From positions 1 through 28,577 of the forward strand of contig JBIKWF010000051.1 of the NCBI GenBank assembly GCA_044356455.1: DNA of 28,577 nucleotides. Direction: 5' to 3'. The DNA is from Bdellovibrionota bacterium. Its GTDB lineage: Bacteria; Bdellovibrionota_C; UBA2361; JBGSMV01. Under the pieces are notes generated by a model. That model was given only the letters and a program-made list of their open reading frames with translations. It searched no databases and was not told where the DNA came from. Each line of letters opens with the position of its first letter. The first letter of the stretch is position 1. Position numbers and translations under genes: made by a program. Positions 3,542 through 28,524 of the stretch are shown here, one piece after another.

Positions 3542-4837
3542 CTAACGTAGGAGTTGCAGGGCAATTTGTGGCTGAAGGTTCGCTTGCGACAGAACCTGGG
3601 CCCCCGCCTGTTGCAGAATTTGAAGGCGGACGAGCTTTGCTGATTCGTCTGCTATGTCAGCATCAGTGATGCGTGACCGGGCTGCGCTTAAGGTCTCACT
3701 CGCTACGAGGCTCAGAGAGGCAGCGCTGGAAAGTCGACTTTCAAATGCGCCGAGTCGGCCTTGAAAGAGAGCAAGTTCTGACAATCTTTGTTTGAGGCTC
3801 TCAAGTGCTGAAAGTGCTCTCGAGGAGGAGTCGACGCCTGTAAATTCGAGTGCAGTTCCGTAGCCTGCTGCTGCTCCGCTCGAAGGCGCGTTGAGGAGTC
3901 TCAGGCCGGACAAATCAAGCGAGAAGTTGATACCGCCGCCCGCATTGATATCGACGGAGCTCTGATTGAACGTGCCGGTGGATGCGTTAACACTAAGGGA
4001 GGTGGAAACGTTGTCAAAGACGCGATCGTAGCGAGATTGGCCCTGTGCGGTTATTTCGAAAAGTCCTGTAGTAGAATTCTTCACGAACGAAATCGCTTCG
4101 AAGTTCGTCTCTGCAGCCGAGTCATACATCAAGCCCACGATGACAGTTTGCTCTACTCCTTGAGCGTCATACACCCTGCGCTCAACATAGCTATTCCCAA
4201 ATATTGTAGCGATTTCATCCCTGGAAAGAGGTCCAAACACATAGTCACGATCGGTAGGGTCATTAAATCCGTCTCTATTGGTATCGGATGTCGCAAGCGC
4301 CGCCCAATTAATCGAGCCACTTAAGGAACCGGTATCGGAGAGGCTGATTGAGATCTGAGAGGTGTTATTACCTCTAGTTCCCGCTTGAATGGATAAGTTT
4401 GAAAGGCCATCTGTGCGAAAGGCGCGGAGGAGCTTGTTTCCATTGAACTCAGTAGAGTCACCTAACCTCCCAAATTCAGAAAGGAGTTCCTGATACTCAC
4501 GGTTGAGAGTGAGTCGCTGTGTTGAAGAGAAGGTCCCATTAGCAGACTGCTCCGCAAGCTCTGAGAGACGCGAAAGAATTCCGGATTGCTGAGAGAGCGT
4601 TGAACTTGCAATGGAAACCGCTGAGATGCCGTCATTAATGTTTCGGACCGCTACATTCGATAGCCGGGTGTCAGTGCGAAGCCGCTCAGCAACGGATAGC
4701 CCCGCCGCATCATCTGCGGCGCTATTGATGCGCTGCCCTGAAGAGAGCCTCTCATAGGTGCGCGCAAGGGCGTCCGTCGACTCAAAGAGTCGGCGCTGCG
4801 CCTGCAGGCTCGCTATGTTGCTCCCGATTCGAATCAA
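3542..4837 (-). CDS. fliC: Flagellin
   Basis: N-terminal NIASLQAQRRL..ERLSSGQRINSAADDAAGL; C-terminal SRITDADIADESAKLVRLQILQQAGAQVLSQAN. TTG start with GGAG upstream. Confidence 0.97.
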   Translation of the reverse strand: MIRIGSNIASLQAQRRLFESTDALARTYERLSSGQRINSAADDAAGLSVAERLRTDTRLSNVAVRNINDGISAVSIASSTLSQQSGILSRLSELAEQSANGTFSSTQRLTLNREYQELLSEFGRLGDSTEFNGNKLLRAFRTDGLSNLSIQAGTRGNNTSQISISLSDTGSLSGSINWAALATSDTNRDGFNDPTDRDYVFGPLSRDEIATIFGNSYVERRVYDAQGVEQTVIVGLMYDSAAETNFEAISFVKNSTTGLFEITAQGQSRYDRVFDNVSTSLSVNASTGTFNQSSVDINAGGGINFSLDLSGLRLLNAPSSGAAAGYGTALEFTGVDSSSRALSALESLKQRLSELALFQGRLGAFESRLSSAASLSLVASETLSAARSRITDADIADESAKLVRLQILQQAGAQVLSQANLQPQIALQLLR

Positions 4838-6533: not shown

Positions 6534-7646
6534 ATGAAAAAGGTTGGTTCGTTTGCGAGTGTCATCTTAGTGGGCAGTCTATTCCTTGGAGCTGAAAGTA
6601 AGGCTCAAGAGTTACAAGCTCCGCTTCTTTGTCAGCGCAAAAATGTTGGCGAAGTGAAAAACCCGCGCACACGTGTTCAGTCCCTGAAGCTAGTCAAGGG
6701 CAAAACGTGCCCGAAGGGTTTTGAGACTATTGGATCCTTTGTAACCCCCGACCTTCTTCAATCCTCAATCAAGAGCGCCACGATCGCTGGACCTAAGGGA
6801 GAAAAGGGGGACAAGGGAGACTCGGCTTCACCTGCGGAAGTCGCTGGAGTTCTCCAGAACATTGCAGCTTTTCGTGAGGCGGTGCGGGGAGAGCCTGGCC
6901 GGCGAGGAGAGCAAGGCGTGCCGGGTGCTTCTGGAGTAGCAGGCCCCCAAGGGGAAACCGGACCGCAGGGGTTGAAAGGAGATAAGGGTGAACGCGGGGA
7001 AGTCGGACCACAGGGGCCCCAGGGCCAGGATGGATTGGTTGGAGCGCAAGGTGCGAAAGGAGATAAGGGCGACACTGGTAGCCAAGGAGCAAAAGGTGAC
7101 CGTGGTGAGATCGGCCCTATGGGTCCGCAGGGACCAGCAGGACCAGTTGCCATTTACGACCAGGCACTATTTGGCGGAATGTACGGCACGGGGTACGGGA
7201 ATCCGCTCGCGGAAGGGGCTGAAGGATGTCCCGCTGGATTTGAGTCGCACCGACTTCTCGGTACACCGAATGTCGATTGGGATCTCTTCGTGTGCCTCGG
7301 AATTCCTGGCCGCGTTGAACCAATCGCGCACTTTGGTGGAATAATCTCACAAGGGCGCAACCCCATCAACGCGGTAACGGGATCTGAGAGCTGTCCAAAC
7401 GCATATCGGCAGCAGCAGGTCTTTGGAAGATTCCCGATCGATGTCGGCGTGGCGTACTGTTACACCACGGACGTCAGCAATCCAGTGCTTACAAGATTCG
7501 GTGGAATGTTTGGAACGGTTCATGGGCAGCTTTCGCCGAATCCAGTTACGGGCAACAGCTCGTGCTGGTGGGGTTACTCGAAAGGTGTCGGAGCTGGAAC
7601 TCCCAATGTTGATTTCCCATTCTACTACTGCTTTGAGAAGAATTGA
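6534..7646 (+). CDS. Secreted collagen-like protein with C-terminal three-repeat Cys-containing domain (MPEG1 P2/MABP-like)
   Basis: GGAGG RBS; signal peptide ending SKA; 29 uninterrupted Gly-X-Y triplets; three FGG-x-NP-x-TG-x-SC-..-C repeats. Confidence 0.9.
   Translation: MKKVGSFASVILVGSLFLGAESKAQELQAPLLCQRKNVGEVKNPRTRVQSLKLVKGKTCPKGFETIGSFVTPDLLQSSIKSATIAGPKGEKGDKGDSASPAEVAGVLQNIAAFREAVRGEPGRRGEQGVPGASGVAGPQGETGPQGLKGDKGERGEVGPQGPQGQDGLVGAQGAKGDKGDTGSQGAKGDRGEIGPMGPQGPAGPVAIYDQALFGGMYGTGYGNPLAEGAEGCPAGFESHRLLGTPNVDWDLFVCLGIPGRVEPIAHFGGIISQGRNPINAVTGSESCPNAYRQQQVFGRFPIDVGVAYCYTTDVSNPVLTRFGGMFGTVHGQLSPNPVTGNSSCWWGYSKGVGAGTPNVDFPFYYCFEKN
6888..7148 (+). repeat. Collagen (Gly-X-Y)29 coding repeat
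   Basis: GEP GRR GEQ ... GPA GPV counted from the translation. Confidence 0.95.
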
Positions 7647-9513: not shown

Positions 9514-11484
9514 ATGCGAAGCCTTTTTCGCTATTTCAGTATCGCGGCGGTTCTTTCGATTATTGCCGCCTCTTTTGGAGGAGGGCTTTCGGCCCATGCC
9601 GATTCGGTAAATTCCCCCAACATCACGCTCAATGTCGATACCAATAGAAACACGGGGCCGGGAGCAGGGAATGTTGCCGTCTCTCTGAACACCATTACTG
9701 TCGCAGAAACGCAGCTTGCAGAGTATAGCTCAGGAAGCGGCAAAGCTATTTCCATTTCAGTGCGCCCTGGATATCGAGTGCCTGCAGGCACCTCGATAAC
9801 GGCTCAAAGTGCGACTATCGGCTTTAATGGTGGCGGGATTAATTCGGTAGCTACCGTCGTTTCATCAGGGACCGAGAATGAAACATTCACCTTTTCACTT
9901 ACCTCGGGAACTAACGCAGGCCTGCAGGATATTATACGCTTTAATGGACTCAGAATTTTGATAGGAAGTGCACTCGGTGCGGCTGGCCCTGCGCAAAATA
10001 CGATGCAGGTTACGACGTCATCGGCGGGGGGAGCTTTCACTGGGCAGTCGATTCTGGCCGCATCTATTACGAAGGGAGCTGCAGATAGGTTAGTGTTCGT
10101 TGCGCAGCCGGGGAGCTCAAGCGCCGGCGCCGACCTCTTGCCAAGTGTTCGTATCGTGGATTTCGGCGGAAATGTAGTGACCACCGATCCGCGCACTATC
10201 TCGCTTTCGATTCAGTCAAATCCAGGTAGCGCGGTCTTGAGCGGGGTTCTTTCTCGGCTGTCAAGCAACGGTACTGCGGTGTGGAATGCCTCTGACAACC
10301 TGGCGATAACTTCAGCGGCAAGTGGCTACACTCTGTTGGCTTCTCATTCAGGTAATAGTTTTCTCTCGGGTGATACCGTTGAAAGTGCGGCATTTGCCAT
10401 CACCGCAGGTAATCCAGGTGGGCTGGCATTCGAAACCCAGCCAACGGAGGTTTCGGCGGGCGGGGACATTATTACGGTAGTAAAGGTAGTTGATGAATTC
10501 GGCAATCTTGTGACCAATGTTCCTACCGAGATCTCGCTTGATTCTCTCTCTCCCAATGCGAATTGGCCACTTTTGGTAGAGACTAGTCTGACCAAAACAT
10601 CCTCGGCGGGCCTTGCGGCGTGGGGTGTTTCAGACCATCTGCGAATCAATAAAGCAGTTGGCTCTTATAGTCTTGTCGCTTCCGGGTTGGGTGCGCCGAT
10701 TGAATCTAATTCCTTTAACGTGGTGCCGGGAGTTGCAAGTGTGGTGCAGTTTGTTCAGCAGCCGTCGAATGTTCGCGTTCTTGAAACCATGAGCCCTGCT
10801 GTGTCTGCTGAAATTGTGGATGCCCTGGGTAATCGCACTTCTTCTAATGCCACGGTCAGCTTGGCTTACCTTGGAACAGCCTGCTCCGGCGCGCTTACGG
10901 GGACAACAGCGCAGGCCGCAAGTGGGCTCGCTGAGTTCTCCTCCCTCAGTTTCGATAAGGCTTGTAGTGGCGGCGAGCTTGTAGCAAGCATCGAGTCTAC
11001 TAATCTCGTGGGGGTCTCGGACCCCTTTGATGTCAAAGCGCTCGATTCACGGACGATTGCGGTGCGGAGCGCTCGGCTCCGCACCGGTAGAAGTTTTGAG
11101 TTTTCCGCAAGTGGACCTTTCACTATATCTTCCAAGAAGATTGACGATCCTTCCAAGAGAGGAGCGGTGCTTTCAGTAACGGGCACCACGGGCACTGTGC
11201 GCTTTTCTTTGCCGAAGCAGGGATGGAAGAAAGTGGGCGCGAAGAGCTTCCAGTTTTCTGGCTCCAAATGCACGTCTGTTGTTGTCAGTCCAAGCCGCAT
11301 CTCCGCGCTCTGTAAGGGCAGAACTGGCAGCTTCTCGCTCCCTGAGCCTGGCCCTGTTGATATCGCTCTGACGCTGGGAGCAGGGACGGCTGAGTTCTGT
11401 GGACAATGCGGGGGGGCCTCGCGAGGGGACGAAACGAAGGTGTTTCGGCGGGTGAACTGTCAAGCGCCTACGCTTTGCCCCTAA
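9514..11484 (+). CDS. Secreted/surface protein with three Ig-like (invasin-type) repeats and a Cys-containing C-terminal domain
   Basis: GGGGAG RBS; signal peptide ending AHA; Ser/Thr/Gly/Ala-rich. Repeats begin RLVFVAQP, LAFETQP and VQFVQQP, each followed by V.(I/V)VD..GN, about 110 aa apart. Confidence 0.85.
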   Translation: MRSLFRYFSIAAVLSIIAASFGGGLSAHADSVNSPNITLNVDTNRNTGPGAGNVAVSLNTITVAETQLAEYSSGSGKAISISVRPGYRVPAGTSITAQSATIGFNGGGINSVATVVSSGTENETFTFSLTSGTNAGLQDIIRFNGLRILIGSALGAAGPAQNTMQVTTSSAGGAFTGQSILAASITKGAADRLVFVAQPGSSSAGADLLPSVRIVDFGGNVVTTDPRTISLSIQSNPGSAVLSGVLSRLSSNGTAVWNASDNLAITSAASGYTLLASHSGNSFLSGDTVESAAFAITAGNPGGLAFETQPTEVSAGGDIITVVKVVDEFGNLVTNVPTEISLDSLSPNANWPLLVETSLTKTSSAGLAAWGVSDHLRINKAVGSYSLVASGLGAPIESNSFNVVPGVASVVQFVQQPSNVRVLETMSPAVSAEIVDALGNRTSSNATVSLAYLGTACSGALTGTTAQAASGLAEFSSLSFDKACSGGELVASIESTNLVGVSDPFDVKALDSRTIAVRSARLRTGRSFEFSASGPFTISSKKIDDPSKRGAVLSVTGTTGTVRFSLPKQGWKKVGAKSFQFSGSKCTSVVVSPSRISALCKGRTGSFSLPEPGPVDIALTLGAGTAEFCGQCGGASRGDETKVFRRVNCQAPTLCP

Positions 11485-11504
11485 CGGGTTGACCCGTATT
11501 TTTT
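11484..11504 (+). terminator. Possible intrinsic terminator
   Basis: ACGGG-TTGA-CCCGT hairpin followed by ATTTTTT directly after the stop codon; the stem is short. Confidence 0.4.
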
Positions 11505-12201
11505 GCCCGCAGGAGTAATGGCGCGAAGGAGGATTTTCTTTTCAACTCCTTGGTCGGCAACGCAGATCCGTATGAGGAAGTCCCTCAGAGGTCAGCATAA
11601 GTTCGTCCGCTGCCGCGCGTATCTCCTTACCGAGGGCGGTGAACTTCTTTTTATCTTGAGTGATATCCTGCGCTAACACGAGTCTCGTTGCTCGATTTGA
11701 GATGGGCGGCGGTTCGGGAGGTTCTGGTGTTGTCGATGCTGGCGGATGTGATTTCATCCAGCCAACCTTGTATTGCTCGAGTTCCGCTTCGGCAATTCCT
11801 GATTAATCTTAGCTTGCGGACCCGCTGGAATGTCGTGAGCAAAAGAGTAGCGGCCCCAGCAAAATGCCCCATCGCCTACGCTCCTCTCGTGCTTGGGCTT
11901 GTAAGTGAGCGATATTCTTGGTGTGAAGATGCGCAAGACGCGAAATTATTCACTGTCTTTCCGAGCTTCCAAAGAGTGATTGAGAAATTACGCCGCCTGG
12001 TTTATTAAGCGCCTCCGCTCTTTAACATGATTTTGATGTGTGCACTTCACTTCTGTGTTTAACGAAAGATGCCGTGCCTAGGCGCTCATCTTGCGTGGGC
12101 AGAGCAGCGAAGTGCAGTTCCTTGAGATTAAAGGTTTTATACTTTTTTAAGATGCGCTCCTCGCGTAGCGCTTACCCCTTATCCACTTTTTTCGTGGAGA
12201 G

Positions 12202-12555
12202 TTGATGAGGGGTAGGCGCATAGCGTTGAAGAAGGGGGCCAAAGGGCAGGTCACGTTTGAGCCTGAGCTCTCTGCAGCCTGTTTTACGGTGGCGGGTTTG
12301 CCAGATCGAGTTCGCTCGTCTCGCAAAAGACACGTGACCTGTGGCTCCTCGGCCGCATCGCTTGAGTTTACCCAATCCCTGGGCAGGATGTTTTCAGACA
12401 GAGCAGACGACTCTGCTTTTCATGTGTCGCTTCCAACGACCTTGAGAGGCACCGAAAGCTCCGAGAAAACAAAGTATGAGGCAGATTTATCCGGCCTTGG
12501 AGTACCCGTGACCTCTCGAATGGGATTTCGATGTCACGGCAACTTCCATTCCTGA
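12202..12555 (+). CDS. Hypothetical protein (doubtful)
   Basis: 117-aa ORF with GGAGAG upstream of TTG/ATG in an otherwise empty gap; no recognisable motif. Confidence 0.3.
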   Translation: MMRGRRIALKKGAKGQVTFEPELSAACFTVAGLPDRVRSSRKRHVTCGSSAASLEFTQSLGRMFSDRADDSAFHVSLPTTLRGTESSEKTKYEADLSGLGVPVTSRMGFRCHGNFHS

Positions 12556-12670
12556 TCTAGGGATGACCAATAGGTGTCAAGGAACTGCCTCGCCCCTAAG
12601 CGTAAATTCGCCAAATACCCAATGTAAGCCTCGCGTTTTGAGGGAACTTATCTTTGTATGAGTCTTTGCT

Positions 12671-13993
12671 ATGGATTTATGGACTCCAGCCCAGATGCCC
12701 TCGGTGACTTCCTTCTCGTCTGACCGAGATAGTCTTGGGGCGCCATGGTTAATTCGCATACGCTGGGCTGCGGCATTTGGACAGCTGCTTGTCTTTCTGG
12801 GGGCCTTGTTTGCCTGGGGAGTTTCGCTTTCTTGGGGACCCCTTATTGCCGTCTCCTTTGTTATCGTTGTTTCGAATCTGCTGCTGCTCTTACCGCAAGG
12901 GACTCTTTGGCTACGCAAGAGGAGCTCTCAGGGCATTATTCTGAGTCTCGATGTCTTTCTTCTTACGGGGCTACTTTTCTTTTATGGAGGGCACACCAAT
13001 CCCTTCAGTATGGCCTACCTTATTCATGTAGTACTCGCAGCTCTCCTTCTGGGCGCCGGATGGACATGGGGGGTGTCTATTCTTTGCTCCATACTCTATG
13101 CCCTCCTATTTGTTTGGTATGTTCCGGTTCCTGAACTGTCTATGGGACACCATCATGGGGGAGGCGGGCCGGAATTCAATCTGCATCTTCAGGGGATGCT
13201 CGCGGGGTTCGTTTTAATATCGTTCTTAATAAGCGGTTTCCTCCAGAAAATGCGCGCAGAAATTGATTGGCGTGAAAAGGAACTCGTGCGGAGGAGATCG
13301 AATGAGGAAAAGCTCGCCGCAGTTACTACCGTTTCTGCCTCTGTGGCGCACGAACTAGGAACTCCGCTCGGCTCGATGATGCTCGTAGTAAGTGATATGC
13401 AAGAGGAGCTTAGGTCTGGCAGGAATGGCGGGGCAATTCGAGAGGATCTTGAGGTAATTCGCCAGCAGCTCGAGCGCTGTGCGGAAGCGATTACGCGTCT
13501 TGGACAGAATTCTGGAGAGCTATTTGGAGAAATGCCACTTGAGTTCTCTCTTGAGAGCGTATTCAAATCTTTAGGTGAGCGACTTACTGATGGCCAGAGG
13601 GCCAGAGTCGATTTCTCGTCGGGACCGGGTTTGCGACCGGTAATTCTCCCCAAAGAGGGTCTGCAGCATGTGCTCCATGCTCTTGTCAAAAACGCCCTTG
13701 AGGCGAGCGGGGAGCAAACAAGGGTACTTGTGTCTGGGGAGGAGAAGGGGGAAGCCCTCTGCCTCCGCATTCAAGATTCCGGAGCGGGGATGAGTCAAGA
13801 GGATCTCAAACGGGTAGGCGAGCCTTTTTTCACTACCAAGGATAGCGGAAGGGGCATGGGACTTGGCCTTTTCATCGCCAAGCTCTTCACTGAACGCTTG
13901 GGCGGAACTTTCGATATTGTGAGTACTTTGGGTATGGGCACGCGGGTCGAGATGCAACTGCCGCGGGTTACTTCTTGGAAAGCAACGCCATGA
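12671..13993 (+). CDS. regB: RegB/PrrB/ActS-family sensor histidine kinase
   Basis: Multi-TM N-terminus with L..IRW and GGHTNPF (GGxxNPF motif); H-box AHELGTPL; N box KNALEA; G boxes DSGAGM, EPFFTTK and GMGLGL. Confidence 0.92.
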   Translation: MDLWTPAQMPSVTSFSSDRDSLGAPWLIRIRWAAAFGQLLVFLGALFAWGVSLSWGPLIAVSFVIVVSNLLLLLPQGTLWLRKRSSQGIILSLDVFLLTGLLFFYGGHTNPFSMAYLIHVVLAALLLGAGWTWGVSILCSILYALLFVWYVPVPELSMGHHHGGGGPEFNLHLQGMLAGFVLISFLISGFLQKMRAEIDWREKELVRRRSNEEKLAAVTTVSASVAHELGTPLGSMMLVVSDMQEELRSGRNGGAIREDLEVIRQQLERCAEAITRLGQNSGELFGEMPLEFSLESVFKSLGERLTDGQRARVDFSSGPGLRPVILPKEGLQHVLHALVKNALEASGEQTRVLVSGEEKGEALCLRIQDSGAGMSQEDLKRVGEPFFTTKDSGRGMGLGLFIAKLFTERLGGTFDIVSTLGMGTRVEMQLPRVTSWKATP

Positions 13994-14508
13994 AATACCT
14001 TGTGGTAGATGATGACGAAACTTTTAGGGAGCGCTTGGTGCTCGCCTTGAAGAGGCGAGGGGATGAGGCGTACGCAGCTGCAACGGCTAGAGAGGGGCGC
14101 GAGCTCGCGGTCCTCAATGCCCCCGATCGGGCGATTGTAGATCTTCGCATGCCTGGAGAGACAGGTTTACAGCTTATCTCATGGCTTAGGGAAGATCATC
14201 CCGCCATGCCTATCGTGGTACTCACGGGTTTTGGAAGTATTGCGACGACCCAAGAGGCGATTTTGAGGGGGGCGCATAGTTACCTAACTAAACCTTGCTC
14301 GATAGAGCGAATACTGCTCGCATTCAGCCCCGAGCCACCTAGCGCCGTTCGACCACTTCCCATCCCTACACTGGATCAAGTCGAGTGGGAGCACGTACAA
14401 CGAGTTCTAGCGGATTTTGAGGGAAATGTAACTCATGCCGCTAAGGCTTTGGGTATGGACCGCCGCTCATTGCAGCGTCGGCTCTCCAAGGCCCCAAAAC
14501 TCAGATGA
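13990..14508 (+). CDS. regA: RegA/PrrA/ActR-family response regulator
   Basis: ATGA overlap with the kinase stop; receiver motifs LVVDDD, DLRM, LTGFGSIAT, YLTKP; Fis-type HTH VEWEHVQRVL...GNVTHAAKALGMDRRSLQRRL. Confidence 0.95.
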   Translation: MKYLVVDDDETFRERLVLALKRRGDEAYAAATAREGRELAVLNAPDRAIVDLRMPGETGLQLISWLREDHPAMPIVVLTGFGSIATTQEAILRGAHSYLTKPCSIERILLAFSPEPPSAVRPLPIPTLDQVEWEHVQRVLADFEGNVTHAAKALGMDRRSLQRRLSKAPKLR

Positions 14509-14511
14509 AGG

Positions 14512-14529
14512 TGCGGCGCAAATGCCGCA
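14512..14529. promoter_or_regulatory. Putative RegA/RegR box
   Basis: TGCGGC-GCAAAT-GCCGCA, perfect 6-bp inverted arms resembling the GCGGC-N5/6-G(T/C)CGC RegR/PrrA consensus. It lies just after regA and ~115 bp upstream of the next gene. Confidence 0.7.
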
Positions 14530-14642
14530 TCCAACTTTACTATCTCACGCGATATGCTTTCCCGGCTCGAAATAGCTCAGCGCGCGCTGAGCCGAGCAGG
14601 ATTTTCTCTTTGGGGCTGAGCCTCATAGAAAGGACGGGCGTC

Positions 14643-14954
14643 ATGTGCCCTCTGTGTTGGGCGGCTTTGGTCGCCCAGGTTTTTTTCTATGTCACACTGG
14701 GGCTGTTCCTGGTGGTGATCACTGATACGAAGGTCGGCCTCCCGCTTTCGCTGGTTTCCCTGACGATTGCGGCGGGGAACCTGTGGGACTGGTGGAGCCT
14801 GCCCGAATGGATGCTGTACGCGCTGGGGGCTTTGCTCTTGGCGCGTGGTGTCTGGGTTCTTGTTAAGCACGAGAACAACTGGGTTCGGCGCATCGCTCTT
14901 CGCATCGGTGGATGGCTGAGGCGCAAGCTTCGGCCTCTTGTGTACGGTTCTTAG
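14643..14954 (+). CDS. Small membrane protein with N-terminal CxxC (MCPLC)
   Basis: AAAGGA RBS before ATG 14643; about three hydrophobic segments; basic amphipathic C-terminus; 103 aa. Confidence 0.75.
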   Translation: MCPLCWAALVAQVFFYVTLGLFLVVITDTKVGLPLSLVSLTIAAGNLWDWWSLPEWMLYALGALLLARGVWVLVKHENNWVRRIALRIGGWLRRKLRPLVYGS

Positions 14955-15032
14955 GCTTGTGTAGGTCGTGCCTTCAAACGATCTCAAATCGTTCCTTTTG
15001 GGGGAACGAGGGTTCAAAGAGAGGTTTTACAC

Positions 15033-15692
15033 ATGTGTATGTATCACGAAGGACTCCGTCATCTTGCCACTTGGTGGCGGGACAACGGAGTGAAGGGTGT
15101 GCAGGAGCGCGACTTGGCTCTGGCCTTGGCGGTTCTGCCGGCGAAGGAGAAGTCTCACCCGTTCCTGGACTGGTTCGAGAGAAACGGGCCAGCTGGTCTC
15201 TGGCAGGTGCAGGTACTGCGCAAGGCAGCGCAGGCCTGCTCGGGCGGTCTGATGGACCAGATTCGGGAGCTTCCGGACGAGAGATGGGAGTGGGGCGTGA
15301 AGCAAGTGCTTCCGCACCTTGCCCTCGAGGACATCGCGAACCAGTGCACCGATGAGCCTCCCACCATCTTCCACTGGATGATGGTGAGGGACGGCCTCAC
15401 GGTGGAGGAGATCCTCTCCATCGGGGTTCTTCAGGGAGTTCGCCCGCGCACCACGTGCCTTAAGTGGTACGAGGAGCATAAGGGCGAGAGCGGAGAGGGC
15501 TGGCCCATTCCGCTCTTTGAGACGCTCGCGGCTCAGGTCTTCAACGGGAAGCTTCTCGACACAATCGAGGCGCTGGACTCGTCTGATGCCGGCGCCGCGC
15601 GTGGTCTCGAGCTTCTCCGCGAGATTCTCAAGGCTCCGCCGTCGTGCTGCAGTAGTTCCGCTCCGCCGAAGAAGCGAAATTGCTGTGGCTGA
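15033..15692 (+). CDS. Hypothetical protein, possibly heme-oxygenase-like diiron (HDO) fold, with Cys-Cys tail
   Basis: GAGAGG RBS; GC-ending codons; HLALED-x13-H and LFETLAAQ segments; C-terminal SCCSSSAPPKKRNCCG. Confidence 0.7.
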   Translation: MCMYHEGLRHLATWWRDNGVKGVQERDLALALAVLPAKEKSHPFLDWFERNGPAGLWQVQVLRKAAQACSGGLMDQIRELPDERWEWGVKQVLPHLALEDIANQCTDEPPTIFHWMMVRDGLTVEEILSIGVLQGVRPRTTCLKWYEEHKGESGEGWPIPLFETLAAQVFNGKLLDTIEALDSSDAGAARGLELLREILKAPPSCCSSSAPPKKRNCCG

Positions 15693-15794
15693 ACAAGTTC
15701 AATCCTGCGGGGGATGCACACACCATGCACAGGTTCACTTTACGGTTCCTTTTTCCCCCCAAGGGAACCAACTTTTATTTTGTTGGTTCCGCCA

Positions 15795-17306
15795 ATGTCG
15801 CGTGATGCCGAGATGTCAGAAAGCAAGTGCTGCGGCACCTGTGGGTGTAAATCTACCTGTGCGGTTTCTCCGCGTGTGGATGCACTCACCGCCTCAGTTC
15901 TTAGGGAGCGCTCGCTGCTCTTGCAGCAGATCCAATCCAAGGGCTCTCCTTTAAATGTGGTGATGCCCCAAACCGTGATACGTAACCACGAAGCTTTCGT
16001 CTCTGTGCTTTCGCGGAACAGTATTCGCGGGGAGGTGCTCTTTACCTCAAAACCAAACAAGTCTAAGGCCATCCTCTCAAGCCTTGCCTTGCGAGGAGCC
16101 TCTGTTGATGTTTCATCTGAAGGTGCGTTGGCTCATGCGCTCGAGTGCGGTGTCAAAAACGAGCACCTTCAATGCTCTGGTCCTAAATCAAGAGAATACC
16201 TCTCCCGCGCTCTTCTCCATGGAACTATTTTGAGTATTGATAGCTTCGATGAGTTCGATCACATGTGCCAGCTTTTGGCGAGTAATCGAAATCTGCCCGA
16301 CGCTCGATTTTTTATCCGCATCTCAGGATTTCAGTCCGATAGGATAAAATTTGCTCCTTCTGATGCTCCCTTTGGGATACGATTTGAAAAAATCCGTGAT
16401 GCGCTCGAGCGTGCCAAGAACGTAGCTCCGCGTGCGCGATTTGAGGGGATACATTTTCATCTGCTCAGCGGAGATCGCGAGGAACGCCTTGTCGCCTTTG
16501 AGAATGCCCTCGAGGGAACTCAGCAGGCCCAGAAAATGGGCTTAAGACCACGTGGCATCAATATCGGTGGCGGATTTAAGATTCAGTATGCGGCGCATGC
16601 CGAAGAGTGGCAGCGCTTTCAAAGCTACTTGCGCGCCTCGGTCCTAGGAAAGGTGAAGCCTGTTACGTGGGATGGATCGGGGCTTGGATTTCGGGCCGAG
16701 GCAGGGCGGATTGTGGGGGCAGCTGCTTTTGCCGATCACTACCCGCAGGAGACAGGGCCAGCGGCGCTTGAATCGTTTCTCTCTCAGCGCTCTCCGGTGT
16801 TTGACCATTGTACCGTGGGAGAGCTCCTTAGAGACATGATGCTCGAGCTAAGAGTTGAGCCGGGACGTGCCTTGCTCGATTGTGCGGGCATCACGGCTTG
16901 TGAAATTAACGCGGTGAAAGAGTCAGCCTCGGGACAGCCCCTCCTTATGCTGAATATGAACCATTCAAACTTATTAAGCCGAGAGCAGAAGCTGCTCACG
17001 CAGCCAATTTTTATTCCTTCAGGCCAGCGCGCGCCCTCAACGCAGAGCTATTTCTTATTTGGAAATTTGTGCATCGCAAGTGATCTAATACAGTATCAAA
17101 AAGTCTACCCCGAGTTTGAGCCGCAGCGGGGTGATGTGGTCATTTTTGTCAATACTGCAGCCTATCTCATGGACTTTGCGGAAGCGGAACTCTTGCATCA
17201 ACCAACTGCAAAGAAAATTGTTGCACTTGAAGGTGCGCAAGGCCTGAGTTTTTGTGAGGATCGCTGTCTTTCAGCGGAGGAAATTCGCTTGGAGGAACAC
17301 CTATGA
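15795..17306 (+). CDS. Y4yA-like PLP-dependent enzyme (fold-type III, diaminopimelate-decarboxylase-like)
   Basis: PLP-Lys motif FTSKPNKS, DVSS.G.L, SGPK, GIHFHL, INIGGGF, VEPGRALLD.AG, GNLCIASD, FVNTAAY.MDF.E. Start uncertain (15780-15813). Confidence 0.88.
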   Translation: MSRDAEMSESKCCGTCGCKSTCAVSPRVDALTASVLRERSLLLQQIQSKGSPLNVVMPQTVIRNHEAFVSVLSRNSIRGEVLFTSKPNKSKAILSSLALRGASVDVSSEGALAHALECGVKNEHLQCSGPKSREYLSRALLHGTILSIDSFDEFDHMCQLLASNRNLPDARFFIRISGFQSDRIKFAPSDAPFGIRFEKIRDALERAKNVAPRARFEGIHFHLLSGDREERLVAFENALEGTQQAQKMGLRPRGINIGGGFKIQYAAHAEEWQRFQSYLRASVLGKVKPVTWDGSGLGFRAEAGRIVGAAAFADHYPQETGPAALESFLSQRSPVFDHCTVGELLRDMMLELRVEPGRALLDCAGITACEINAVKESASGQPLLMLNMNHSNLLSREQKLLTQPIFIPSGQRAPSTQSYFLFGNLCIASDLIQYQKVYPEFEPQRGDVVIFVNTAAYLMDFAEAELLHQPTAKKIVALEGAQGLSFCEDRCLSAEEIRLEEHL

Positions 17307-18616
17307 TTATTGAAGATGTTACCGAGGCTATTGGAAATACCCCTCTGCTAAGAATTCCCTCTTCAGTGACGCAGCTCCGAAATATTGATCTGTTTGCAAA
17401 GCTTGAATTTCTCAATCCTTTCGGATCCGTAAAGGATAGAATTGCCTGGGGCATGCTTCGAGAGGCTCTCTCCGGAATAAAAGAGAGGGGGCAGGGAATT
17501 ATCGAAAATTCGAGCGGAAATACTGCCAAGGCACTTGCAGTGCTTGCCAGGCGTCAAGGGGTGCCGTTCAAGCTTGTGAGCGCGATGGTGAAAGTTAAGG
17601 AAACCAAAGACATACTCGCGCTATTAGGCGCTGAGCTTGAGGAGGTTTCGGGTTCACTCAATTGTTACGACCCAAGCGACCCGAACGATCCACAGTATCT
17701 GATTGAACGAGAGGTCGCACGGGCACAAGGCAAGCTTTTTTTTACTTCTCAATTCACTAATCCACGTAACCCTGAAACTCATAAGGAAAGCACGGCTCAA
17801 GAAATCCTACGAGATCTGGGGCGCGTAGATTACTTCTGCTCAGGGTTGGGAACGGCGGGGTCCACTCTTGGAATTGCAGAGGGCTTACGCGAGAGAAACG
17901 CAACGCTTAGACTCGTGGGCATCACCGCGGGAAAGTCCGATTACATCCCGGGGATTCGAACCATCGACCAGTTGCAGGAAGCCGGAATCTTTACGCCTGA
18001 GGCGTATGACGAGATTGTCACCGTAGAATCTTCCGAAGCCATAGATGGGGTGCTGACGCTTATTCGTGAATGCGGCGTATTGGGTGGTCCCTCCTCTGGT
18101 GCGCACTTGAATGGAACTTTAGCGTACCTTAGAAAGGTTGACGCGAGTCTTGCCTCTCGGGCGACTGCAGTGACCATCGTTTGCGATAGAGTGGAATGGT
18201 ATTTGTCCTATCTTCGCGAGCGTAGGCCAGAGCTTTTTAATGAAAAGAAAAAGCCAAGGTCCATTTATTCGCTGACGCCAATGGAAATTTCAAGAGCGCC
18301 TCTTGTCGGGTTTCGCGATGCTGAGCGCTGGGTAACCAACAACGGCGCTCTCGTAATTGATGTGCGCGCTGCTGTGGCTTACGAATCAGGCACGTTCCCG
18401 GGCGCTATTAATATCCCTACGGAGTCTCTTGAAAAACTTCTTGATTCAAGAGTCCCCTTTGTCGGTGAGGAGCGAGCGGTGCTTTTTGTTTGCCCAGTCG
18501 GCGAGCAGTCGAAGCGTTTTGCAGCCCAACTCACTAGAATTGGAGGGCGAGGGTTTAGTTTGGAAGGTGGCCTTGTCTCCTGGCGTAGTGCGCGTGCAGG
18601 GGAGCGGGATCTATGA
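17303..18616 (+). CDS. Cysteine-synthase-family (fold-type II PLP) enzyme fused to C-terminal rhodanese domain
   Basis: IGNTPL, KLEFLNPFGSVKDR, ENSSGNT, GLGTAGS, GPSSGA; then VIDVR...GTFPGAINIP, VCPVGEQS, SLEGG..SW. ATGA overlap with the upstream gene and GGAGG RBS. Confidence 0.93.
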   Translation: MIIEDVTEAIGNTPLLRIPSSVTQLRNIDLFAKLEFLNPFGSVKDRIAWGMLREALSGIKERGQGIIENSSGNTAKALAVLARRQGVPFKLVSAMVKVKETKDILALLGAELEEVSGSLNCYDPSDPNDPQYLIEREVARAQGKLFFTSQFTNPRNPETHKESTAQEILRDLGRVDYFCSGLGTAGSTLGIAEGLRERNATLRLVGITAGKSDYIPGIRTIDQLQEAGIFTPEAYDEIVTVESSEAIDGVLTLIRECGVLGGPSSGAHLNGTLAYLRKVDASLASRATAVTIVCDRVEWYLSYLRERRPELFNEKKKPRSIYSLTPMEISRAPLVGFRDAERWVTNNGALVIDVRAAVAYESGTFPGAINIPTESLEKLLDSRVPFVGEERAVLFVCPVGEQSKRFAAQLTRIGGRGFSLEGGLVSWRSARAGERDL

Positions 18617-18729
18617 TGGACTACCGGGAGAGGGCGCCAAGGTAAAAGAAGCGAGTCCCGTGGCAGTTCGATACACTCTCGTGGAAAGAATATCTCACGG
18701 AGCCGTAGGGGCGCCGCGAGATATTGGGG

Positions 18730-19347
18730 CTATCGTAGTGCTGCCACAATTTGAGGAGCATTCACTAAGCGCTCTAATATCTCGCGTTGCTTCGCTGTCA
18801 CCCTGCGTTCTGACGCGCCTACCGGATTCCAGAAGCTCCCGTCTATGGAATCGTTTCCCTCAACGGCGTTCTTAGCGAGCACTTTGCGGCTTCTATCTTG
18901 AACAGACGCTTCGAGGTGGTAAGTGAAATTTACGTTCGTCATCGTGTCACTTTTCCACTTCTTGATGCGAAGTACGAGGGCGCGGTCCTTAGAAAAAGGT
19001 ACAGTCTCAAGGTTTCCTCTTAGGGGAACCGCGTTCACCTCTGGGCTCGCACCTGACCGGCGAAAGCTCTGAGCGAGAGAGTTTCCTAACTCCTCGGCAA
19101 GCGGCTTGCCACTCTCGGTATGAACTCCATACGGGATACCAAATCCGGCCCGCTGCAAACCAATCCATTGCGGCGTTTTATCCCCACTAAGAACTTCAGG
19201 CCTTTCATCAACGGCAACGATCTGAAGCGAACGAGAACCAACATTGGGAACCGATACCGAGGTCGATTGCAGACTCATTTTGGTGCCGAACGCACAGGAT
19301 GAGAGGAGTAGTGATACTGCGATTAAAACGAAGAGGCGTCGGTTCAT
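18730..19347 (-). CDS. Lipoprotein (YajG-like, uncharacterised)
   Basis: GGAGG RBS; lipobox LLSS|C; V.AVDERP motif. Confidence 0.8.
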   Translation of the reverse strand: MNRRLFVLIAVSLLLSSCAFGTKMSLQSTSVSVPNVGSRSLQIVAVDERPEVLSGDKTPQWIGLQRAGFGIPYGVHTESGKPLAEELGNSLAQSFRRSGASPEVNAVPLRGNLETVPFSKDRALVLRIKKWKSDTMTNVNFTYHLEASVQDRSRKVLAKNAVEGNDSIDGSFWNPVGASERRVTAKQREILERLVNAPQIVAALR

Positions 19348-19502
19348 GAGTCCCTCCAGGAAGAGTTTAGGTCAGTTATTTCTACTTAATTCTACTTTCT
19401 GAGGCCAGATGGAGAGGTGCGCGAACCTTACTCTTCGGCTCAGTTCCGCTATTACCCTTAACGAGTATGGTGGCGTTGTCCACTACGAGAAGGGAATTTG
19501 CT

Positions 19503-27465: not shown

Positions 27466-28524
27466 CTATTTGGAGTGACTAAGCAGCAGGAAATTGCAAA
27501 GCTTATAAAGCATTCTCGCACCCACATTCGCGTCCCACTCAGTTTCCCCGGGTGAAACTTCGTTCAAATCAAAACCTATAAGCTTTCGCCCAGAACTGAC
27601 CACTTCGCGAATTAGGTACACGGCCTGTTCAAATTCAAGCCCGCCAGGTACGGGGGTTCCCGTGTGAGGGCAAAGCTTTGGATCCAGACCGTCAATGTCG
27701 AAACTGAGGTACACCTTTTCAGGCAGGTCGTTCACTATTCTTGTGCAAATGGATTTCCAGGAGTGACCCGCGTAGAGGTCCGCCTTGAGGCTGGCATCGA
27801 AATACGTTTTGACACGGCCCTTTGAGCCACTGATGACATTGGCTTCCGCCTCGCAAAAGTCTCGGATTCCGACTTGTACTAGCTTTTTCACTTGAGGAAT
27901 GGTGAGGGCATTCCACATGATAGAAGCGTGCGAATAGGTAAAGCCCTCGTAGGCGTCTCGCAAATCACAGTGCGCATCGATTTGTAGAATGCAGAAACTG
28001 TCATGTATTTCAGAGAGAGCGTCAATAAATCCAAGGGGAGTGCTGTGGTCGCCCCCTACAAGTCCGACAAGCTTTCCCGCCTTTAAGAGGGTTGAGGTGC
28101 GGGACTTCATTTCTTGCCGAAACTTTGCGCACGCCGCATTTATTTCATCACGGATCTCTCGCATCGCTTGGTCGGAAGAGAGCTCTCCGCCTTCAGAGAG
28201 AAACGAGATATAACGCTCTGCCTTTGGCCGTAGCTGCCCAGAAATCTGAGCCCACTCAGAAGGGATTTCCTGCATTGCAAAACCCTGCTTCCAGCCGCCG
28301 GGAAAGTCTTGGTCGTGAAGGTCAACCTGGTACGAGGCTTCGAGAATCGCAGCTGGACCCTCTTTTGTTCCCGCGCGGTACGATACCGTCGTATCCCAAG
28401 GGGCGGGGACAAGGATTATTTTTGATTCTTCTTCACTGAGCGGAAGCCCAAAGATTTGGTTTGAGGCGAGTCCGACGTCGTTAGGGTCAAAGTCTTCTAG
28501 TTTCTTTAGGTCAGGGGTGCTCAT
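27466..28524 (-). CDS. speB: Agmatinase/arginase-family ureohydrolase
   Basis: PWDTTVSYRAGT..GP.AI, GGDHS, QIDAHCDLR, SHAS, SFDIDGLDP...TGTPVPGG and D.NEV metal-binding motifs. Confidence 0.92.
   Translation of the reverse strand: MSTPDLKKLEDFDPNDVGLASNQIFGLPLSEEESKIILVPAPWDTTVSYRAGTKEGPAAILEASYQVDLHDQDFPGGWKQGFAMQEIPSEWAQISGQLRPKAERYISFLSEGGELSSDQAMREIRDEINAACAKFRQEMKSRTSTLLKAGKLVGLVGGDHSTPLGFIDALSEIHDSFCILQIDAHCDLRDAYEGFTYSHASIMWNALTIPQVKKLVQVGIRDFCEAEANVISGSKGRVKTYFDASLKADLYAGHSWKSICTRIVNDLPEKVYLSFDIDGLDPKLCPHTGTPVPGGLEFEQAVYLIREVVSSGRKLIGFDLNEVSPGETEWDANVGARMLYKLCNFLLLSHSK

Follow-up and report, generated by a model that had tools for sequence, protein, structure and literature searches.

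A conserved Bdellovibrionota operon pairing a Y4yA-like decarboxylase with a PLP/rhodanese fusion behind a RegA-type operator: a putative metal-ligand pathway

A stretch of 28,577 nucleotides from a Bdellovibrionota bacterium (contig JBIKWF010000051.1 of assembly GCA_044356455.1; here ‘the window’, meaning the whole stretch analysed) carries six genes and a palindrome, all on the + strand within 12671..18616, whose gene order and conservation mark them as a conserved operon. A RegB/RegA-like two-component system stands ahead of two small cysteine-tipped proteins and of an enzyme pair, namely a Y4yA-like decarboxylase and a pyridoxal phosphate (PLP)-dependent enzyme fused to a rhodanese domain. 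The elements are as follows.

12671..13993, + strand: regB-like gene, 440-aa RegB/PrrB-like membrane histidine kinase, named from its best match (NF033792) and its motifs
13990..14508, + strand: regA-like gene, 172-aa RegA/PrrA-like response regulator, receiver plus Fis-type helix-turn-helix
14512..14529, + strand: RegA-type operator TGCGGC-N6-GCCGCA, TGCGGCGCAAATGCCGCA, a palindrome conserved in six regBA-adjacent copies
14551..14558, + strand: G-N-TAT(A/G) element from a gap-free alignment, a probable -10 region
14565..14597, + strand: RNA element E1, from covariation, probably the 5′ end of the transcript
14643..14954, + strand: MCPLC membrane protein, 103 aa, with CxxC ahead of the first hydrophobic helix
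14962..15014, + strand: RNA element E2, from covariation and a shuffle test
15033..15692, + strand: 219-aa protein, a tandem duplicate of a helical domain of about 105 aa, C-terminal end SCCSSSAPPKKRNCCG
15704..15779, + strand: candidate RNA element E3, two alternative folds, present in eight loci
15795..17306, + strand: Y4yA-like fold-III PLP decarboxylase, 503 aa (PF02784; relatives named ‘Y4yA family’)
17303..18616, + strand: PALP plus rhodanese fusion, 437 aa

The six genes, the palindrome and the translational coupling of the fusion had all been reported in an initial annotation of the window, and each was found in place; ATGA overlaps couple regB to regA (at 13990) and the decarboxylase to the fusion (at 17303). 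Pfam assigned HisKA/HATPase domains to the kinase, a receiver and HTH_8 to the regulator, Orn_Arg_deC_N to the decarboxylase and PALP with Rhodanese to the fusion, and had no assignment for either of the two small ORFs. Among the 24 open reading frames (ORFs) of the window that were scanned there was no IucA/IucC-type synthetase or non-ribosomal peptide synthetase, as the annotation had also held.

When GTDB was scanned with a profile, 543 stretches were confirmed; the best 80 of these provide all counts over GTDB loci. The PLP/rhodanese fusion adjoined a Y4yA-like decarboxylase in 79/80, bearing out the earlier expectation of a conserved neighbourhood, and the pair is old and widespread, with copies in Actinomycetota, Micavibrio-like bacteria, Melainabacteria, Chloroflexota and the window's order. 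Within that order its distribution is patchy: 21 of the 91 genomes surveyed hold 30 decarboxylase copies, with up to three copies of the pair per genome. The window's copy belongs to a sub-clade of 13 copies in 12/91 genomes, for which the other 17 copies serve as comparison; another copy of the pair is also present in 8/12 sub-clade genomes. No published account of the pair was found in the open-access literature, which omits most subscription papers.

Zinc-type markers (Fur family, COG0523, ZnuA/B, Zrg) lay within 8 kb of the pair in 41/80 loci, compared with 6/396 tiles of 17 kb from the window's own 4.7-Mb genome, and one COG0523 neighbour scored above the ZigA cut-off (626 against 600). 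The redox or detoxification setting suggested initially does not match this family context, which is one of zinc or metal supply (Zur boxes, COG0523/ZigA, ZnuABC, Zrg). Other recurrent neighbours were a CooC-like ATPase (33 loci) and a methyltransferase (31).

By sequence comparison, a RegA-type box has replaced the Zur box in one monophyletic sub-clade, that of the window. The RegA-type pattern lies within 1.5 kb of 10/13 sub-clade copies and 0/17 others, and for the remaining three sub-clade copies a box was found in larger loci or on an adjoining contig; with box arms taken from four regA loci outside the module, and at most one mismatch, 11/13 sub-clade copies were matched (0.03 expected) against 1/17 selected others. 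A Zur-type box precedes 7/17 other copies of the order compared with 0/13 in the sub-clade. Neither GCAAC-N3-GTTGC nor TGAnAAnnnTTnTCA, which we take to be a form of the Zur box, occurs within one mismatch at 11400-19000 of the window, and a paralogue in the same genome (C209:24293) is preceded by a Zur-type box. In a quick IQ-TREE phylogeny with approximate likelihood-ratio support (SH-aLRT), in which 12 of the 13 sub-clade copies were rows and from which four duplicate loci, proteins shorter than 380 aa and 23/35 actinobacterial rows were left out, the sub-clade forms one branch (support 99), sister to Zur-boxed copies (97).

In six loci the spacing between the palindrome and a TAT(A/G)-type element is constant and free of gaps, and a sigma-70 scan found no canonical promoter. 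The other seven sub-clade copies carry versions with a 5-nt spacer, two of which read TGCAAC-N5-GTTGC. A pattern built from the module boxes has exactly two sites in the genome, one before each module copy; the RegA-type pattern has seven exact sites there, and the two-component system thus appears to act locally rather than globally. The same box adjoins regA or its target in 4/18 other regBA loci of the order. The earlier claim of a RegA-controlled module is supported in that the box marks the whole sub-clade, and is curtailed in that regBA itself adjoins only 6/13 sub-clade copies and 3/80 GTDB loci. The second full copy of the module (C209; L016, 3026-17116) has 66–82% identity to that of the window, its MCxxH protein excepted, and includes one more Cys-rich membrane ORF. 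Opposite it lies a third Y4yA/PLP-rhodanese pair, which has a Zur box and is transcribed divergently from two COG0523 genes.

GCAAC-N3-GTTGC was found in 12/92 sequences, where 1.3 sites would be expected, and almost all of its sites lie immediately ahead of Y4yA, COG0523, Fur or zrgA; in the window's own genome two of its four exact sites precede zinc genes, one of them a znuA-znuB operon. De novo expectation maximisation (EM) recovered a Zur-like palindrome before Melainabacteria copies (log-likelihood 82.6, against 27–30 when shuffled), and TGAnAAnnnTTnTCA matches 6/14 Melainabacteria-type loci (0.24 expected); a palindromic EM search upstream of actinobacterial and alphaproteobacterial copies gave either a motif resembling a promoter or no clear result. 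At C117:220 (L121, 264-3602) the GCAAC-N3-GTTGC site, probably the Zur box of this order, is followed by the gene of a His-rich outer-membrane-like protein and by znuA and znuB. Among Micavibrio-like loci (L033-L082), the motif TGTTATA-N-TATAACA lies within two mismatches in 14/19, a count made with no shuffle control. The Zur-class copies of these loci are accompanied by an unannotated MCKFH/MCRWH family, DUF2946 and a 236-aa family, and their CooC-like ATPase has a G-x-x-C-Y-H motif.

The RegB and RegA names given initially stand as best NCBIfam matches, at scores below the cut-offs of both families (207.6 bits against 350 for NF033792, 129.3 against 250 for NF033791). The kinase has GGHTNPF, an AHELGTP H-box and an ERC cysteine; a GGxxNPF motif with a conserved cytoplasmic Cys, both present here, is presumably the mark of a RegB redox system. 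The periplasmic loop of the kinase is His-rich (MGHHHGGGGPEFNLHLQGM), and at least two His stand ahead of HLxGM in the loop of 22/23 RegB proteins inspected. Because of this loop, we prefer to regard the kinase as a putative metal sensor. Elsewhere in the order, 11 of the 18 other regBA loci adjoin metal-handling-type genes, by labels of our own and with no background control. Six lie by CxxC/His-rich outer-membrane beta-barrels, and single cases lie by a TonB receptor with PepSY, a CobW-type gene, a resistance-nodulation-division adaptor, a P-type ATPase and an MCPLC-like gene. The six barrels (L177, L178, L180, L183, L185 and L186) have an N-terminal CxxC, His-rich loops and a weak PF13557 match, and in three of these loci a RegA-type box lies ahead of the barrel gene. 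In L170 (G015:C100, 6240-6960), regBA, a box and an E1 hairpin are followed by a longer MCPLC-like membrane protein beginning MAPCCWALL, with no enzyme genes downstream of it.

The decarboxylase has full-length homology to proteins named Y4yA family (27–37% identity over about 90% of the length), and the PLP Lys, GGG, EPGR and the Cys of GNLC are invariant across its homologues. Its identity as a Y4yA-like fold-III enzyme is as first proposed; its KCC start is not, the likeliest start being ATG 15795 (503 aa, MSRDAEMSESKCCGTCGC, P0011) or 15813, and from 15795 the KCC stretch runs from residue 11 onward. The start chosen by the ORF finder, 15714, falls inside the conserved element E3. The N-terminus carries CCGTCGC, and such vicinal cysteines are restricted to the window's sub-clade. 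Among the matches is a ‘probable DAP decarboxylase’, 6KNH, which we take to be SbnH. A further fold-III decarboxylase-like gene of the same genome (C174; L122, 8677-13879) appears to share an operon with DUF1611 and two genes that lack annotation.

For the fusion, Pfam, an AlphaFold model (mean predicted confidence, pLDDT, 88) and structure searches confirmed a fold-II PLP domain followed by a C-terminal rhodanese domain. K44, C121 and the rhodanese C397 are present in 91/91 homologues and R219 in 90/91, and the SSGN loop is invariant. The top structural match is aspergillomarasmine A (AMA) synthase of Aspergillus oryzae (PDB 8H4H/8H4Q), at Foldseek ranks 1–4 and VIA ranks 1–2, the only top rows spanning both domains. 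VIA aligned 408 residues (Z 37.3, next 36.2; 22% identity) at a root-mean-square deviation of 21 Å, as large as this because the two domains are placed differently. In a family profile search 8H4Q/8H4H came at ranks 7–8, the sole matches extending into the rhodanese domain. For the homologue in L034, AMA synthase is the top sequence match, the two having in common SSG, a P-x-P-N-D insert, PG(P/I)RS and the rhodanese Cys.

AMA synthase and Fda4 of Fusarium poae, which have the same two-domain build as the fusion, catalyse beta-replacement on O-phosphoserine: according to PMC12751119, the former joins it to Asp and the latter, a PLP enzyme with a rhodanese-like domain, joins it to Ala. SbnA, CmnB and Tln5 are named as similar C–N formers in bioRxiv 10.1101/2025.10.30.685158. 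Because AMA synthase makes C–N bonds with the same two domains, a rhodanese domain is no proof of sulfur chemistry, and the C–N chemistry of AMA synthase, Fda4 and SbnA makes a C–N product that would later be decarboxylated slightly preferred by analogy. The beta-replacement and decarboxylation without a synthetase that were first envisaged are thus retained, with sulfur incorporation reduced, in view of AMA synthase, to one option. The window's fusion differs from AMA synthase in sequence (21–22% identity), in Cys121, which is found in the bacterial proteins only, in its obligate decarboxylase partner and in the domain placement of its model.

Neither small protein is easily placed. The MCPLC protein matched nothing in Pfam, NCBIfam or the Atlas, and seven MCPLC-type proteins gave no match to MerC, MerT or MerF profiles at E ≤ 3 (two accessory proteins of Micavibrio loci matched MerC weakly, E 0.015–0.019). 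It occurs in eight copies in 7/91 genomes of the order, in one of which it is fused to a 219-aa-type protein (P0008). The 219-aa protein begins with MCxxH and ends in a flexible tail bearing CC. It had been called an orphan, a label it loses with nine other homologues at 57–70% identity and shorter single-domain relatives. Its internal repeat is clear: when the profile was built from first halves together with single-domain relatives, second halves scored 33.8–67.7 bits, compared with at most 5.1 for 1400 shuffles. All 14 family members lie, in the loci examined, directly upstream of sub-clade decarboxylases, and among 1.84 billion representatives there were 16 matches, 13 of them plausible and three short chance stretches in giant proteins. 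A genome scan with a single protein as query had no result, a metagenome scan for the family found one locus only, judged spurious, and ESM Atlas had no usable match for either small protein. The AlphaFold model of the 219-aa protein is all-helical (pLDDT 89.3, predicted TM score 0.86) and found no fold match (best Z 3.7, best Foldseek E 0.75), which is not proof of a new fold.

G+C content at third codon positions is 0.72 for the MCPLC ORF and 0.75 for the 219-aa ORF, against a genome mean of 0.54 (sd 0.04), and the codon choice of both resembles that of GroEL and EF-Tu, unlike that of the enzyme genes, from which high expression of the two may be inferred. A foreign origin of these ORFs was set aside as less likely, since three other loci show the same skew, which is also that of highly expressed genes. 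Stop-codon read-through joining MCPLC to the 219-aa ORF was dropped, the two being in frame in 3/6 unfused loci, as judged by eye. The 219-aa protein of the window has 65% identity to a copy found in a different family of this order and 31% to its own-genome paralogue (window, L016, L029), a pattern unlike that of its neighbours, which suggests that the 219-aa gene has been exchanged between the conserved RNA elements.

Covariation supports E1 and E2 as RNA structures. E1 has a 5-bp outer stem (GCTCG/CGAGC), a 5-nt bulge, a 7-bp inner stem, largely exchanged in the window copy, and a 4-nt loop; 60/60 cells are paired, four pairs are changed on both sides and 1–2 of 500 shuffles scored equally high, and a held-out locus, L170, retains 11/12 E1 pairs by eye. 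E2 consists of a hairpin with a conserved GCCxxCAA loop, a second hairpin that folds in 7/7, and A(A/G)GGTT; its first helix is 98.4% paired with four pairs changed on both sides (0/500 shuffles as high), and it is retained even within the fused MCPLC/219-aa ORF. A 3-bp pseudoknot in E2 is unsupported, because its pairs never vary. E3 combines a CCTG/CAGG stem around a run of 4–6 G, a GGTTCC/GGAACC stem around a run of 4–6 C and a U-rich tail; alternatively a long helix joins the G-run to the C-run, and the predicted minimum-free-energy fold alternates between the two among seven homologues. A terminator-like match lies at 15744-15769, of a kind overall no commoner here than in shuffles. The structures of E1–E3 were derived from the same few related sequences on which they were tested, so that the shuffle figures overstate their support. 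Rfam 15 gave no match at 11400-19500 beyond one chance hit (18 bits, gathering threshold 40). Searched against the 91 genomes, the E2 and E3 models recovered only the eight module loci (59–83 bits, next best below 24), and a role as general riboswitches of the order was rejected; classical attenuation through stalling of the ribosome on the terminal CC codons was dropped too, the distance from stop codon to E3 varying from 6 to 46 nt.

Among described systems, SbnA/SbnH of staphyloferrin B and the rhizobial Y4yA clusters (ParB-like, Y4yA, CysK-like, opine dehydrogenase, IucA/C, MFS) likewise set a Y4yA-family decarboxylase beside a cysteine-synthase-like enzyme, and other Y4yA-family enzymes co-occur with SbnA-like, opine-dehydrogenase or OCD, and IucA/C or MATE genes. 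Unlike these, none of the 80 loci matched the rhizobial and mycobacterial seeds (IucA/C, opine dehydrogenase, OCD, ParB-like, MFS, MATE), a weak test as regards transporters; the fusion, moreover, carries a rhodanese domain that SbnA does not, the loci fall on a separate branch of the tree, and the window's fusion scores 147.6 against the SbnA model (TIGR03945, cut-off 349.95). Two mycobacterial plasmids (L108, L109) bear Y4yA with cysteine-synthase-like, OCD and MATE genes and no synthetase, one of them by copper-resistance genes. The pathway to [S,S]-ethylenediaminedisuccinate (EDDS) in Amycolatopsis japonicum also uses a cysteine-synthase-like enzyme and a decarboxylase. EDDS is described, in PMC7586795 and PMC9252823, as a Zur-repressed aminopolycarboxylate zincophore; unlike in its pathway, no C–N lyase or MATE gene recurs in the 80 loci.

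The two-component system resembles RegB/RegA (PrrB/PrrA, ActS/ActR) in its GGxxNPF motif, H-box and Cys and in an operator of the type GCGNC...GNCGC, the RegA consensus. It differs from those redox systems in its scores below cut-off, its His-rich loop, its metal-type neighbours and its apparently local reach. From the Zur-class copies of the pair, the operon differs by its RegA-type box, MCPLC and MCxxH proteins, CCGxCGC N-terminus and E1–E3, and in having neither CooC-like ATPase nor desulfurase. By analogy, it would be a variant, in its regulation and accessory genes, of a bacterial pathway that is itself uncharacterised and resembles AMA, EDDS and SbnA–SbnH ligand synthesis, and not a cluster for a siderophore of the kind made by IucA/IucC-type synthetases.

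The explanation we favour, at a probability of roughly 0.45, is that of an operon activated through the RegA-type box and yielding a decarboxylated, beta-substituted-alanine metal ligand. Its observed footing is the gene order and conservation, the dichotomy of operator motifs, the phylogeny, the fold match and the covariation of E1 and E2; the chemistry, the signal and the roles of accessory proteins and RNAs we infer as follows. The His-loop kinase would sense a metal state beyond the reach of the Zur-controlled sister copy, and the phosphorylated RegA-like protein, bound at the palindrome, would turn on a single transcript. Starting from O-phospho- or O-acetyl-serine, the 437-aa enzyme would expel phosphate or acetate and join a nucleophile to the resulting PLP-aminoacrylate, most likely an amino-acid amine by analogy with AMA synthase, Fda4 and SbnA. 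The newly added alanyl unit would then lose its carboxyl to the Y4yA-like enzyme, and the product, of the N-(2-aminoethyl)-amino-acid type, would be an EDDS- or marasmine-like metal ligand made without IucA/IucC. The two Cys-tipped proteins are probably abundant products that would bind or pass on metal; E1–E3 may tune the stability of the mRNA and the output of each gene, with E3 possibly limiting read-through into the enzyme genes.

Several observations weigh against this explanation. The lead of AMA synthase over the next PLP enzymes is about one Z unit at 21–22% identity, 8H4H is not within the top 60 when the window protein is used as a single-sequence query, and Cys121, invariant in bacteria, aligns with non-Cys residues of AMA synthase. 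No exporter was found with four single seeds in the 80 loci, an insensitive test, and this fits poorly with a secreted chelator. The kinase retains redox-type motifs, and no RegA-like gene was found in one sub-clade genome, G081, which is 90% complete. The RegA-box pattern was composed after the module boxes had been seen, so that the test was not blind; exact GCAAC-N3-GTTGC sites show no genome-wide excess (4 against 4.9 expected), the Zur-type TGAnAAnnnTTnTCA is found in only 5/36 actinobacterial copies (0.1 expected), and the 80 loci are not independent, 35 being from Actinobacteria. A desulfurase-like gene in 54/80 loci, finally, favours sulfur chemistry.

A sulfur nucleophile is a somewhat unlikely reading, and still the closest competitor owing to C121 and these desulfurase partners. 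A desulfurase would load persulfide on C397, from which it would pass to C121 by the PLP site and be added to the aminoacrylate; in a variant, cysteine would add instead, giving lanthionine. Decarboxylation would then yield a cysteamine- or thialysine-type thiol or thioether metal ligand, with the same regulation and the same link to metal. The universal presence of C121 and C397 is what such a relay would need, the catalytic-Cys motif is present in 57/61 desulfurase-like neighbour proteins from three sub-types, Cys/Met lyase-like genes adjoin some copies of the pair, and the fusion has a CysM-like IPGIR loop, with C121 aligned to the CysM ‘GM’ loop, which we take to lie at the active site. 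AMA synthase, however, retains the rhodanese Cys, yet its reported reaction is sulfur-free; the operon of the window's sub-clade has no desulfurase, and making cysteine from desulfurase sulfur would presumably be futile. A further reading, unlikely as a whole, would combine a His-loop RegB/RegA branch acting as metal sensor, an undescribed metallophore that may contain sulfur and would be built with a persulfide relay using the extra active-site Cys, E3 as a switch controlled by a ligand (metal, cysteine or product), three undescribed structured RNAs and a new-fold MCxxH metal carrier.

That the operon is a redox-induced unit releasing sulfide or persulfide or detoxifying metal, in which a classic redox RegBA acts and Cys tails and H2S buffer excess Cu, Cd or Hg, is quite improbable. 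A GGxxNPF-type motif is kept in 23/23 RegB proteins and a loosely matched xRC cysteine in 20/23, vicinal cysteines are peculiar to this sub-clade, and the additional pair copies in most of its genomes mean that signals may differ. A perfect RegA-type box also precedes, in the window's own genome (C48:16053; L217, 5554-7826), a bufferin-type operon with a BufA2-like peptide and an MNIO BufB above cut-off; a conserved RegA–bufferin link was nonetheless rejected, the box being present, within one mismatch, in 2/30 MNIO loci. Such a unit would leave the obligate decarboxylase unexplained, and the family context is one of uptake, not efflux; the histidines ahead of HLxGM in nearly all RegB loops also speak for a metal signal.

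It is highly unlikely that a chelator pathway is linked to RegBA only incidentally and regulated by another factor or by the RNA elements. Adjacency of regBA in fewer than half of the sub-clade copies, the spacer of 5 or 6 nt and the two TGCAAC-type variants would agree with such a view, against which stand the presence of the same box beside regA in unrelated regBA loci, its fixed spacing to the -10-like element and a RegA-like gene in 11/12 sub-clade genomes, as compared with 48/91 in the order at a stricter threshold. Ordinary LysA and CysK/CysM paralogues can be given next to no weight, as the annotation had anticipated: although LysA and CysK/M are the best family-model matches, and no canonical LysA was identified elsewhere in the genome, both enzymes score far below cut-off (decarboxylase, TIGR01048, 101.7 against 297.9; fusion, TIGR01136/01138/01139, 183.9, 168.4 and 154.8 against 344.15, 394.2 and 350.95), a separate 305-aa cysteine-synthase-like gene lies on contig C175, and the pair is patchy and up to triplicated.

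Elsewhere in the window, a 440-aa ORF with 30 cysteines and no Pfam family (386-1708) is probably secreted, and a flagellin with a large insert (3542-4837), a collagen-repeat protein (6534-7646) and an arginase/agmatinase-family enzyme (27466-28524) showed no link to the module.

Among bacterial enzymes, the pair seems to come closest to the fungal enzyme responsible for aspergillomarasmine A, a zinc chelator, and its study could reveal the role of the rhodanese domain in this enzyme family. With the copy in the window comes a clean case of operator replacement, in which a single clade has a RegA-type box where a Zur box would stand. This copy also adds a small protein family with no fold match and three candidate cis-regulatory RNAs, and it provides a testable hint that some RegB/RegA systems may sense metal.

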